Below are positions 14,891-21,163 of a DNA stretch of 64,000 nucleotides, piece by piece. The position numbers and the translations under genes are program-made. Within the stretch, counting starts at the first letter, position 1. Every line of letters begins with the position of its first letter. This stretch comes from Octopus vulgaris (taxonomy: Eukaryota), in contig OX597819.1 in NCBI GenBank assembly GCA_951406725.2, positions 62,001 through 126,000 of the forward strand, in the 5' to 3' direction. Below the pieces are notes generated by a model that saw only the letters and a list, made by a program, of their open reading frames with translations, made no database searches and had not been told where the DNA came from.

Positions 14891-17148
14891 GTTTCTTTAT
14901 TGGCCACACAGGGCTGCACACAGATGGGACAAGTTACAAGGTAGAGCTTTTCTTTTGGGGGGATGAAAAAAAAAACCCAAAAAACAAAGGAAACAAAAAA
15001 AATCCTTGCTACATTCACCCATCTTTTTTTAAAACATTCGCTAGACAAAACTTGCCTCTCTACTCTCACTTTCCTTTTCAAGTGGTACTTGAAGAAGTTG
15101 ATGAGAGATTGACCATAGAGGAAAGTGTTTGTCTCCAATCCTTTCAGACGCGTCCACCAGATACATTCTTTCGCCATAGCCACAAGGATGATGAAAATAG
15201 CCCTTCCTTCCCGTTTGAAGGAAGGAGGCGTGACAATATTGACGATAGACAAAACTTGCCTCTCTACTCTCACTTTCCTTTTCAAGTGGTACTTGAAGAA
15301 GTTGATGAGAGATTGACCATAGAGGAAAGTGTTTGTCTCCAATCCTTTCAGACGCGTCCACCAGATACATTCTTTCGCCATAGCCACAAGGATGATGAAA
15401 ATAGCCCTTCCTTCCCGTTTGAAGGAAGGAGGCGTGACAATATTGACGATAGACAAAACTTGCCTCTCTACTCTCACTTTCCTTTTCAAGTGGTACTTGA
15501 AGAAGTTGATGAGAGATTGACCAGAGAGGAAAGTGTTTGTCTCCAATCCTTTCAGACGCGTCCACCAGATACATTCTTTCGCCATAGCCACAAGGATGAT
15601 GAAAATAGCCCTTCCTTCCCGTTTGAAGGAAGGAGGCGTGACAATATTGACGATTACTTTCACTTTCCTTTTCAAGTGATACTTGAAGAAGTTGATGAGA
15701 GATTGACCAGAGAGGAAAGTGTTTGTCTCCAATCCTTTCAGACGCGTCCACCAGATACATTCTTTCGCCATAGCCACAAGGATGATGAAAATAGCTCTTC
15801 CTTCCCGTTTGAAGGAAGGAGGCGTGACAATATTGACGATAGACTCAGCTGATAAACCGACTCGTCCCACACGTGACAGCAGTTGTTCGACATAAGCCCA
15901 CAGGTCGGAAATTGTTGGACACTGCACGAGTGCGTGCAGAACGGTTTCGTCGCTCTGACCGCATCACGGGCAGGTCGGCCCTGGGTTTCTCGAGCCGTGT
16001 CTGTAGAGCTTATCCCGAATGGGTAGCGCTTCTCGGTAGCACTGCCAGGCCAGGGATCTCTGGAAGTTGTCCATGGGCCCTGGCCCGAAAGTCGTCCCGA
16101 ACAGGCGGGTCAGGTACTCCTCGTCGACGTCCAGGTTCGCCCCGAGCTCGTCGTCGTACCTCCCCTCCACTAATCCCCTATAGAATGCTTTGGTTGTGAT
16201 GAAGTCACTCAAGGTCGACCCGGGACGGCAGAGTTGCTTGAGAGCAACGCGACACTCGCGGTGCCATTCGCCCTTCCTCGGCCTCTTTTTGATCCACGAC
16301 TGCAGTTCGGTCATGGAGACGAGTTGCGGGAAAGTGTGCCTCACAAACGGCGACCACACCTGTTCACCGTTGTCTACGTAGAGCCGGAGATGTCACAGTC
16401 TCAGCGCATGTCTGCGCATCATCAACCACGACATGCCCAGTTCTTCTTTTAACAGGTGTTGACAGCAAATGGATCGCCTGACCATCGGGACGCATCCTTT
16501 CCACAAGAAGCGAAAGAGAATGCGTTCTAGTTTGGTGATGGTAGGGTCGGGACAAGGCACGACCGTCAGGCGGTAGTAGATGACGGACGCGATGTACGTG
16601 TTCGCCACCTCCGCCCGACCTTTTAGGGACAGTTTCCTCTCGGCCCATTGCCGGGCGAGAGTGACCACCCTACTCGTTATCTCGTTCCAGTTCTTCTCCA
16701 CTCGGAGGTCCGGACCAAACCAGACCCCGAGCAACTCAACCGGGTCGTCGGTCCAGCGTCCCACGACGGAGGCGCTGGTGGACGGCATGGGCTTGCTTCT
16801 CCAGGTGCCTAGTCGCAAGCCCACTGACTTTTCCCGGTTGATTTTCACTTCCGTCACCGCTTCGTAGTTTTTCAGTGTCTCGCCGACCTGCTCGATGTGC
16901 TCATGGCTAGACACTATTACGTTGACGTCGTCCGCGTATGCTGACACGCTCGTCCCGCATCCCAGTTCTCGCGGGATGCCCCTCAAAGTTGCCAGCTTCC
17001 GCAATAATGGCTCGAGAGTCAATACGTATAGAAGCGACGAGAGGGGGCATCCCTGACGGACCGAACGTGCGATGTCGAAGGGTCTCGATAGATGTCCATT
17101 TACGCGAATTACCGACGGGTGCCTCTGTACAAAGCGGCTATCCAGCCC
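14889..17148 (-). mobile_element. 5'-truncated second Tx1-like LINE (related subfamily) with an internal 204-bp tandem amplification
   Basis: VRQGCPLS, AYADD and the C-terminal region are homologous to 9180-10790; similar 3' terminus; truncated at 17148. Confidence 0.92.
15043..15845. repeat. About four tandem copies of a 204-bp ORF2 segment
   Basis: Identical 63-aa ORFs at 15125 and 15329 (offset 204); the peptide IVNIVTPPSFKREGR occurs four times in the 14791-15927 ORF. Confidence 0.95.
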
Positions 17149-17315
17149 AAAACCATATAAAATAAATATACATACAAACCCACATACATACACATGCGAA
17201 TATCCATATATATACATATACGTATGCCCATGCATATACATACAGACACACGCATACATATAAATACACAAGCACATATATATACACATATACATACACA
17301 TACATATACACACAT

Positions 17316-17384
<69 letters not shown>

Positions 17385-17452
17385 TCGGGGTTAACCACAG
17401 TAAATAAGGTACTCAATACATAGCAGAGTAAATTAATTTATTTTATAGAAGG

Positions 17453-17503
17453 AGCTTCTACAGGACTAGAACTGTTTCATTCAAAAGAAATCATCAGGAA
17501 GCT
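17453..17503 (-). ncRNA. Type I hammerhead ribozyme motif, antisense twin of 17500-17550
   Basis: Exact reverse complement inside the perfect palindrome 17436-17567. Confidence 0.85.
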
Positions 17504-17550
17504 TCCTGATGATTTCTTTTGAATGAAACAGTTCTAGTCCTGTAGAAGCT
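17500..17550 (+). ncRNA. Type I hammerhead ribozyme motif (predicted GUA cleavage after 17544)
   Basis: AGCTTC-CTGATGA-TTTCTTTTGAAT-GAA-ACAG(ttctagtc)CTGT-A-GAAGCT; stem I 6 bp, stem III 4 bp, weak stem II. Confidence 0.85.
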
Positions 17551-17565
17551 CCTTCTATAAAATAA

Positions 17566-17604
<39 letters not shown>

Positions 17605-17792
17605 CATACAAATACACATACACATACACGCAAACACACGCACATATATATATATATATATACATATATATACCTACATATACACACACACACACATATA
17701 TATTTTTTCTCCTCATCTTCCTCCCTTATTTTATTTTTATTTTTATTTCCTTTTCTCTATTTGTCTCTCCACCCTACTCCAAACACATAGAG

Positions 17793-17840
<48 letters not shown>

Positions 17841-18867
17841 ACACACACACACAAAAAAAAAACACACGTACACATAGAGACGCGCACACACACATCTCCA
17901 TAGTACAGTCATATAAAGTAGATGAATTTCTTAGCTGACCGTCTTCAAAATCATAAGGGTTTAATTTATGACCTGCCTACACACCGACACACATTCAGTG
18001 ACGCTAGAATAGAGAAACGCCAAAAGTCCCTAGAACTCCCCTTGGGATTCCAGTCGGCCAAAGGGGATCCTTCTACCACTCCCCACTCCCTTCCTTTCTA
18101 TCTCGTTACCCACGGATACAAAGGCACACACTCACACACACGCACACTCATACACATACACATACACACATGTTCTCTCACTCATTTCCTCCTCATCCAC
18201 TTATACATATGCATATATCTTTCTCTACATGCACATATATATACATATATATACATACACAAATACACACATGCGTACATACATAAATGTACCCACGTTC
18301 ACATAAACATATGCATAATTATGCATATATAAACACACATGTATAAACGTACTTCTGTACACATAAGCACACATAAACATCTGCCCGCTTATATAAACGC
18401 ATATGCACATATAAAACCATATGTGCATATAAACATACATACGCATATATACGCATCCATACGCATATAAATACATATATGCACACATGCATGCATACCT
18501 GTATACATAAATGCATACATGCATATACATACATACACACATATATACATACATGCACATACATATGCATACATAAACATATGCACATATAAATACACAT
18601 ACGCATATCTACACACGTACACTCACACACACTCACACACTGACACACACACACCTATATATACATATAAATGTCTACAAGTCCATACATTTACACACAT
18701 ACACATATATATATATACATATACATATATATATATATATATATGTAGGTCCCGGGTTGATTCGGGGTTAACCACAGTAAATAAGGTACTCAATACATAG
18801 CTGAGTAAAATTAATTTATTATATAGAAGGAGCTTCTACAGGACTAGAACTGTTTCATTCAAGAGAA

Positions 18868-18918
18868 AGCTTCCTGAAGATTTCTCTTGAATGAAACAGT
18901 TCTAGTCCTGTAGAAGCT
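18868..18918 (+). ncRNA. Type I hammerhead ribozyme motif (predicted cleavage after 18912)
   Basis: AGCTTC-CTGAAGA-TTTCTCTTGAAT-GAA-ACAG...CTGT-A-GAAGCT; differs from the 17500 copy only at core N7 and loop 2. Confidence 0.85.
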
Positions 18919-18941
18919 CCTTCTATATAATAAATAAATAA

Positions 18942-18984
<43 letters not shown>

Positions 18985-19809
18985 CATACATACATATATA
19001 CACATACATACATACATATATACACATACATACATACATACATACATACATACATACACCCATACACAAGTATACAAGCATATACATATACATATATATA
19101 CATAAATACACATACGCATACATATAAATACATACAAGCCTACGTATGTATACACATACACATATACATACATACATACATAAACCTATACATGTATATA
19201 CTCATACTTACACATGCACATACACACATATATATATATATATTTACATATACATAAATACACACATGCGTACATATATATACATATACACCTATACATA
19301 CATACATACATACATACACATAGATACACGCACATAAGCACAAACATATAAATATTTATATACACATAAATTTATACATATGCATACACATACACATACA
19401 TATATGCTCGTGTACACACACACATGCATTAATACATACACCCACATATACAAACATATGCACGTATACACACATGCATATACACGCATACATATACACA
19501 CACATATATATACACACATACATATATACATACATATACATATATATATATATATATATATACATACATATATATATACACACAAACCTGCACACATATA
19601 CACATACACACGTATACACGCCCACACATACACACGTACATACACTAATGCACACACACACATACAGATACATATATGCACTCGTATACATACATGTGCA
19701 CATATACACATGCCCACTTCCATATATATGTATATCGTCTTAGGAGAGAAGGTAATTGGGGGTGATGAAGGAACGGTGGGGGTGGGGGGCTTTTGTGGGT
19801 GGGGTGACG

Positions 19810-20165
19810 TCAATCGGGTTGCCGGGTGGGTCTGTAATGTTTGTAGTTTGCATAAATTTTGTGCATACAGTTTGGGGAGTGTTCCGAGATCTTGTTGAGG
19901 AGAGGGCCTTTGGCGAACAAGATCTCCAGGCTCTCAGAAATGCAAAGGTCGTAGCAAGTATGGCCTCCAGTGTAAGAACGCGCCCTCTTTAGTAGTCTCC
20001 ACTTGATCTTGAAAGGGATGGAGTTCCTTTTTAGGTGCCAGATATGGGCGGTGAGAATAGTCTGGTTAGATTTGTCAGGTCGCCGGAACGAATGTGTGTG
20101 GGCGTACCAGCGAGTCTTAAAACTATTTGACGTCATTCCGATGTACGATTTTCTAGGAACTGTTG
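19810..20165 (-). pseudogene. Penelope-like GIY-YIG endonuclease C-terminal fragment
   Basis: SYIGMTSNSFKTRWYAH..SF...HIWHLK...IKWRLL...DLCISE...LLNK..E....CMH follows the PLE endonuclease pattern. Confidence 0.8.
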
Positions 20166-20568
20166 GCGTTTCTCTATTCTAGCGTCACTGAATGTGTGTC
20201 GGTGTGTAGGCAGGTCATAAATTAAACCCATATGATTTTGAAGACGGTCAGCTAAGAACTTCGTCTACTTTGTATGACTGTACTATGGAGGTATGTGTGT
20301 GCGCGTCTCTGTGTGTACGTGTGTGTTTTTTTGTGTGTGTGTGGGGGGGATGTGTGCGTGTGTGTGTGCGCGCGCGTGTCTCTATGTGTTTGGAGTAGGG
20401 GGAGAGACAAATAGAGAAAAGGAAATAAAAATAAAAATAAAATAAGGGAGGAAGATGAGGAGAAAATATATATGTGTGTGTATATGTGGGTATATATATA
20501 TGTGCGTGTGTTTGCGTGTTTGCATGTATGTGTATGTGTACTTGTATGTGTGTATATATATGTATGTA

Positions 20569-20617
<49 letters not shown>

Positions 20618-21004
20618 ATGTGTGTATATGTATGTGTATGTGTATATATATATATGCTTGTGTATTTATATGTATGTGTGTGTGTGTGTCTGTATGTATA
20701 TGCATGGGCATACGTATATGTATATATATGGATATTCGCAAGTGTATGTATGTGGGTTTGTATGTATATTTATTTTATATGGTTTTTCATTTATCTACTT
20801 CTTCCCTCAACTTAATAACAACAACAACAAAATGACTAAAAGCAATAGTCTTCTAATTTACCTAAAACTCTATTCAATTATTCTATTTATTCATTTATTT
20901 ACTTTATCACTGATTCTTTTGACAACTCCCTTAAGAACGATAGTTTGCGATCTGCTTACCCAAAAAACGTCCCCCACCACCACCCCATTAAATCTGCCTA
21001 AAGG

Positions 21005-21011
21005 TATAAAT
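21005..21011 (+). promoter_or_regulatory. Candidate TATA box of a Penelope pseudo-LTR
   Basis: GGTATAAATACC about 29 nt upstream of the hammerhead stem I. Confidence 0.4.
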
Positions 21012-21033
21012 ACCAGACCTTATTTTGACAGCC

Positions 21034-21084
21034 AGCTTCCTGATGATTTCATTTGAATGAAACAGTACTAGTCCTGTAGAAGCT
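21034..21084 (+). ncRNA. Type I hammerhead ribozyme motif (predicted cleavage after 21078)
   Basis: AGCTTC-CTGATGA-TTTCATTTGAAT-GAA-ACAG(tactagtc)CTGT-A-GAAGCT. Confidence 0.85.
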
Positions 21085-21092
21085 CCTTCTAT

Positions 21093-21163
<71 letters not shown>

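Follow-up and report, generated by a model that had tools for sequence, protein, structure and literature searches.

A perfect palindrome of two opposite-strand hammerhead motifs in the octopus genome as a probable dead-end insertion of a Hydra-clade Penelope-like element

Results

In the 64-kb window of Octopus vulgaris DNA (the whole stretch that was analysed), an exact, spacerless palindrome of 132 bp is located at positions 17436–17567, with 66-bp arms, the centre AAGCTT and an overlap of the two strands' motifs in AGCT (17500–17503). The first-pass annotation had described this palindrome and its centre, and both are confirmed; it is the sole perfect non-(TA) palindrome with arms of at least 14 bp in the window. 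The same annotation had drawn a unit of about 180 bp with (TA)n on both sides. The (TA)n flanks are present, at 17323–17380 on the left and 17571–17598 on the right, but the unit itself spans 17381–17572 (192 bp) and is asymmetric, with a tail on one side. With the A of hammerhead stem I numbered as element position +1, the tail arm (17381–17503, minus strand) covers +1 to +123 and is composed of the hammerhead, an AT-rich stretch and the tail, and the short arm (17500–17572, plus strand) extends from +1 to about +68/+72, has no tail and abuts (TA)n. The window tail arm has 13 bases less at its tail end than most copies, and in 28 of 29 other compared loci the tail end is longer than that of the window unit by 11–13 bases. 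A target-site duplication is unreadable within the repeat.

The palindrome lies within an older copy of the same family, a long inverted insertion at 17147–21106 whose arms align over 17147–18035 and 20151–20790. This host copy retains an endonuclease fragment on the minus strand (about 19810–20154) and its own short-arm hammerhead (21034–21106), which is preceded by TATAAA at -29. Alignment of its arms identifies an empty-site counterpart at 20553–20579, where the same (TA)n is found in the other arm without the palindrome. A second short inverted unit (18745–18940) belongs to another subfamily and has another junction, its tail arm ending short of the ribozyme core. At its left border the older copy is without a tail end and is abutted by a broken LINE RT fragment (YADD, minus strand, 15840–17146); a 204-bp tandem repeat of about four units is situated at 15042–15844.

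An assembly artefact is considered unlikely because 469 copies of the palindrome are dispersed in the genome. The junction is also found in contigs from public runs, with the mirror arm continuing past AGCT loose ends in 10 contigs of run X8, possibly the assembly's own sample, and in one contig of run X1.

Each strand of the palindrome carries a full type I hammerhead motif of the Hydra-clade form, one at 17500–17550 on the plus strand and its mirror at 17453–17503 on the minus strand, and inspection of the sequence bears out the earlier reading that the two share AGCT. All type I features are present in the sequence: the CUGANGA core, GAAA, UH and three stems. In the plus-strand motif, stem I is formed by 17500–17505 and 17545–17550, the core by CUGAUGA (17506–17512) and GAAA (17525–17528), stem II by 3 bp plus a U.U mismatch, and stem III by 4 bp closed with an 8-nt loop; the U.U lies at 10.1–11.1 beside the core, as it does in many Hydra hammerheads. 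Cleavage is predicted after A17544, the site proposed previously, and between 17459 and 17458 in the mirror motif. This assignment rests on the sequence and its match to published Hydra-clade hammerheads. The Infernal search with Rfam models that had been suggested as a check detected no hammerhead: the 64-kb window gave no match at the gathering score, and the 61 matches at E ≤ 5 over 17200–17800 include none, the best being miRNA hairpin models, i.e., matches of shape that fall below their gathering scores.

It had been proposed that the palindrome RNA could fold either as a long dsRNA hairpin or as a ribozyme; the hairpin alone is predicted, at -113.9 kcal/mol versus -37.9 kcal/mol with the ribozyme helices forced, a gap of 76 kcal/mol, and the ribozyme helices have a predicted probability of 0.000 on both strands. 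The isolated motif reaches the ribozyme fold within 0.3 kcal/mol of the minimum, and this fold is excluded in the palindrome according to the same predictions; the plus-strand hammerhead is predicted to be sequestered by the antisense arm. In a separate parent transcript, that of locus L223, a rival hairpin at +41 to +59 overlaps stem I on its 3' strand; predictions favour this hairpin over the ribozyme fold, and it is a possible off switch.

Genome-wide, exact-match patterns, which miss old copies, recovered 4,661 occurrences of a 32-base tail sequence and 4,552 of the ribozyme, and the exact AGCT-centred palindrome occurs at 469 loci, in keeping with the expectation that many copies would have this centre in common. 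Among the common insertion products of the element, the window unit is of the shortest kind. The 40 best matches to the window unit are 99–100% identical to it. Among the first 100 tail matches on contig C1, an inverted arm lies at most 300 nt away in 63, and the tail is followed by a TA-type run in all 100 (94 of them clean). The 20 long loci retrieved have inverted arms of about 140 bp to more than 3 kb. Near-complete fold-backs of 3.0, 6.7 and 1.1 kb (L073, L074 and L077, contig C1) indicate that the genome tolerates very long palindromes.

Longer copies were used to describe the parent element. Locus L065 has an inverted 3' region, an RT-endonuclease ORF truncated at its 5' end, a 3' region rich in microsatellites, and the ribozyme with its tail; in tandem copies, the ribozyme and tail are followed by the ORF from near +183. 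RT and GIY-YIG-type frames are located 3' of the same hammerhead and tail. Two frames of L084 (506 and 230 aa) align to homologues of about 700 aa, some of which carry PF00078 or PF01541, and L287 has a single 680-aa open frame spanning RT and endonuclease, without the N-terminus; no full-length intact ORF was seen among the copies read. A Pfam search with two parent frames returned neither RT nor GIY-YIG, and the family call therefore rests on the homologues and on motifs, namely DKT (SDKTKN), YRDD, RIRWRS (with R for K, homologues having RWK or RWR) and a CxCX5C linker (CNCHDKTTC). A first pattern for the window-type pLTR-ORF junction matched no locus, and a shorter one matched 15, including L221 and L223. 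Over 123 nt, the window tail arm matches the pLTR of the ORF-bearing copies L269 and L270 at every base. On these sequence characters the parent is assigned to the Hydra clade of Penelope-like elements (PLEs), and the origin from a PLE, the mobilisation by PLE proteins and the (TA)n targeting suggested in the first-pass annotation are all supported. The Naiad clade was considered and rejected, the endonuclease being C-terminal.

Several features of the long copies are recorded here in their own right. A C run between the RT thumb and the endonuclease breaks the frame in 33 of 35 rows (L084:2656 and 34 others) in two subfamilies, a few of the loci overlapping, and its in-frame form is found at 24 loci genome-wide; the break could stem from sequencing error in the homopolymer, mark a non-autonomous lineage or involve recoding. 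Between the arms of a long copy, L070:5169–7091 encodes a different Hydra-like ORF with asparagine-rich inserts, comparable with the N-rich inserts in rotifer PLEs, and unrelated ORFs of 1015, 1039 and 302 aa, LINE-like by eye, are nested between inverted arms at L063:4254–7298 and L072:3865–7727.

To describe where arms end, the same first 100 tail matches on contig C1 were all retrieved. Downstream, 5' ends of the tail arms fall at +1 (24), +2 to +10 (23), +11 to +44 (10) and beyond +47 (7), with none at +45 to +47; upstream, 30 lie at or beyond -90, 5 at -89 to -11 and one at -10 to -1. The 63 short arms, a count that leaves out L247 for its spurious alignment, likewise end mostly at +1 (22) or +2 to +10 (25), the others at +11 to +44 (9), +45 to +47 (2), -10 to -1 (4) and -89 to -11 (1). 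At the opposite end, 57 of 64 listed short arms stop between +65 and +72, 29 of them at +68, and the tails of most copies stop at +135. The near absence of ends at +45 to +47 (0/100 and 2/63) indicates that the copied RNA was mostly uncut. Across 20 distinct upstream variants, a TATAA-type box is located at -29 in 14 and at -30 or -31 in 2; two variants with internal deletions have it at -18, and two have none.

Where arms are joined directly to (TA)n, the base at -1 is G in 43 of 69 cases, T in 11, C in 8 and A in 7 (hand count of 87 rows, from which 18 duplicates were removed). The parent mostly has T at this position, and the extra G is absent from parent and target alike, although in 3 of the 43 arms it is possibly a remnant of the other arm. 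Arms truncated elsewhere have it in none of 7 cases (Fisher p = 0.002 versus 43/69), a control that comprises these 7 arms only. At junctions with a spacer of 1–8 nt, counted by hand in the first 50 of 138 loci, G stands at -1 in 79 of 100 arms and in both arms of 33 loci; at arm-to-arm junctions such a G could in many cases be templated by the other arm. A different irregularity, a single missing G at +46 (10 of 178 palindrome arms) or +49 (17 of 178), is probably a systematic long-read error in hairpins.

With TATAAA at -29, a sharp-edged accumulation of arm ends at +1 and the extra G found there, the palindrome centre probably marks the start of the element's RNA. From the DNA junctions only, we infer that this +1 RNA was capped: the extra G is as expected from copying a cap, to which the extra G at full-length L1 5' junctions has been ascribed (PMC11702581), and a non-templated C added by RT at run-off would mimic it. 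The +1 edge might instead reflect stalling of the RT or a hot spot of resection at stem I, since it coincides with the helix end and AGCT offers 4 bp of homology. A stall, however, is expected on entering the helix (+51) rather than on leaving it, and this explanation accounts neither for G at (TA)n junctions nor for the TATA spacing kept across divergent subfamilies; we regard it as highly improbable.

The palindrome is probably a dead-end insertion of a Hydra-clade PLE, in which two short cDNAs were primed at both (TA)n cut ends on capped sense RNA and joined through AGCT, which is self-complementary. A pLTR promoter, with the observed TATAAA at -29, would start the capped RNA at the A of stem I, and the endonuclease would, as is usual for its family, cut the (TA)n that is found at the insertions. 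One target end would be extended from the tail end at +135 and the other from +68, the two points at which arms are seen to stop, with internal initiation at +68 proposed by analogy with the anole element PAc. When the 5' pLTR serves as template, each cDNA would reach the 5' end of the RNA within 135 or 68 nt and there often acquire one base opposite the cap, the putative source of the extra G. The 3' ends of the two cDNAs would then anneal at the short homologies found at the junctions, mostly AGCT, through a presumed joining pathway. The downstream pLTR as template would yield kilobase arms. Both ribozymes would be passengers: in read-through RNA a 66-bp hairpin is predicted, and it would block the two of them.

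Two separately primed cDNAs are likely because either arm can reach further 5' (the short arm in 15 and the tail arm in 10 of 63 pairs) and each occurs alone, the nine solo loci read comprising five short arms and four tail arms. Arms of one insertion are discordant in subfamily at three sites in 1 of 77, 2 of 86 and 2 of 89 cases, versus 38, 23 and 25 under random pairing; in the pools for the arm-pair, subfamily, fold and variant comparisons, a few overlapping loci are possibly counted twice. This concordance points to a single source locus or a single RNA for each event and is also predicted by one template copied twice or by fold-back; only a few loci, e.g., L179, look like two templates. 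PAc, which is predicted to be dimeric, cuts and extends both target strands, and two RT start sites delimit its tail (Frangieh 2024), which the arm ends at +65 to +72 and +135 recall; hammerhead cleavage is dispensable for PAc insertion in vitro.

A single cDNA strand that folds at its 5' end and is copied onto itself would also give arms that are nearly always of one subfamily and that end within 4 nt of each other, as 38 of the 63 pairs do, and self-priming of this kind on an antisense template has been published for palindromic junctions in rotifer PLEs (Arkhipova 2013, PMC3846280). Such a copy cannot exceed its template at the 5' side, whereas here each of the two arms is the one that extends further 5' in some pairs (15 and 10 of 63); short arms occur alone, with the extra G in three of the five read; and the non-templated G stands at the sense 5' end, in both arms of 33 of 50 spacer loci. 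Fold-back is thus improbable here, and the junctions argue against the antisense self-priming proposal.

The first-pass annotation had suggested that the palindrome may be a minimal non-autonomous fold-back retrozyme. If such an element propagated itself, a palindromic master would be transcribed, e.g., from the TA run beside it, its own ribozymes would process the RNA, and the whole unit would be inserted again. Such propagation would fit the exact centre common to 469 loci, the 99–100% identity of the 40 best matches, the RT start regions on both arms and the pair L017 and L025, which have one asymmetric variant in common. The perfect AGCT centre, however, is found in just 10 of the first 100 insertions on contig C1 (L149, misaligned, being left out of this class). 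The annotation had reasoned that random fold-back points in other copies would reduce these units to truncated PLE insertions; the remaining junctions do form a continuum, yet the centre itself is non-random. Perfect palindromes fall into at least four subfamily haplotypes, every variant common among them is also present in long copies, and a comparison of 40 perfect, 65 long and 103 other arms gave no variant private to the perfect class, a test of limited power because 30 of the 40 were chosen for closeness to the query. L009 and L281 have a rare tail variant in common and differ in their junctions. The unit is without an upstream TATA, its ribozyme fold is disfavoured by 76 kcal/mol, no tandem direct repeats are found, the arms contain uncut ribozyme, no tail arm of 100 starts at the cut site, and just 29 loci join at that site through stem I. 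Self-propagation is accordingly a very unlikely reading, and perfect palindromes are likely made de novo at each insertion.

Of the 29 loci joined exactly through stem I, 10 were read, and 8 of these have a tail arm that terminates at the cut site. Ribozyme-cut RNA was considered as their template; the 6-bp stem I homology accounts for them equally well, and they are therefore not used as evidence.

Discussion

The stump architecture is already known and is standard for EN+ PLEs, whose insertion unit comprises a pLTR, an adjacent inverted 5'-truncated copy and a one-sided tail (Craig 2021, PMC8557442; Arkhipova 2013, PMC3846280). The octopus units have the same head-to-head arms, one-arm tail, junction palindrome and AT-rich target. 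Unlike that unit, both arms here are reduced to the ribozyme region without an ORF, the tail is about 67 nt compared with 30–40, and an extra G stands at junctions, a feature unmentioned in the portions of PMC8557442 and PMC3846280 available to us.

Within the Hydra clade as described by Craig 2021 (PMC8557442), the parent has the C-terminal endonuclease, DKT, the CxCX5C linker and the (TA)n target in common, together with RWR at the RWK position and the hammerhead form ctgatgat...tgaa with U.U beside the core. In the same source, an inverted 5' copy and hammerheads on both strands are recorded for Penelope-13_HM. The octopus ribozyme differs in sequence from every Hydra row seen in File S2 of that source, including Hydra-1_oBim; its stem III loop has 8 nt versus 1–3 in the clade, and the unit, at about 5.2 kb and with a long 3' region rich in microsatellites, compares with mostly less than 3 kb for Hydra.

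In Schistosoma mansoni, dual minimal hammerheads on opposite strands have been ascribed to truncated PLEs (Cervera and de la Pena 2014, PMC4209133); there, too, two PLE hammerheads lie close together in opposite orientation, but 100–700 bp apart, whereas here they overlap by 4 bp. Non-LTR retrozymes (bioRxiv 10.64898/2026.07.22.740005) are likewise non-coding, derived from a PLE pLTR and equipped with type I hammerheads; they consist of direct repeats in tandem with at least two hammerheads on the same strand, whereas the arms of the window unit are inverted and each strand has a single motif. For L1, too, insertions that join two oppositely oriented RT products have been described, but they are rare (PMC11702581). 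As in L1, both DNA ends would be RT-extended and joined by microhomology, with an extra G at full-length 5' junctions; unlike L1, this is the majority outcome here, and both arms start near the same 3' point, which differs from twin priming.

The origin of tandem and inverted PLE structures has been listed as unresolved (Craig 2021, PMC8557442). On balance, and with considerable reserve, we lean towards regarding the octopus insertions as the first genomic record of a PLE that primes at both target ends and uses capped sense RNA whose 5' terminus is the first hammerhead base. The inverted pLTRs would then be two joined cDNAs, not products of antisense self-priming, and the ribozyme would be placed where its cutting decaps the element's own mRNA. 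A literature search limited to papers outside subscription returned no report of a cap-derived base or of two-ended priming in PLEs.

The palindrome in the window is probably not a self-copying ribozyme element. It would be a by-product, one of several hundred mirror-image stumps, whose value lies in the mechanistic record that their DNA junctions appear to hold. Thousands of young insertions give base-level predictions, namely a start at AGCT, a cap-derived base, RT starts at +68 and +135 and one cDNA per target end, and these could be addressed in the existing in vitro system in which both strands are cut and extended (Frangieh 2024). Where opposite-strand hammerhead palindromes are met in animal genomes, they should be checked for PLE stumps before retrozymes or microRNA hairpins are called, and in the octopus, small-RNA silencing of the PLE family may draw on the hundreds of 66-bp hairpins.
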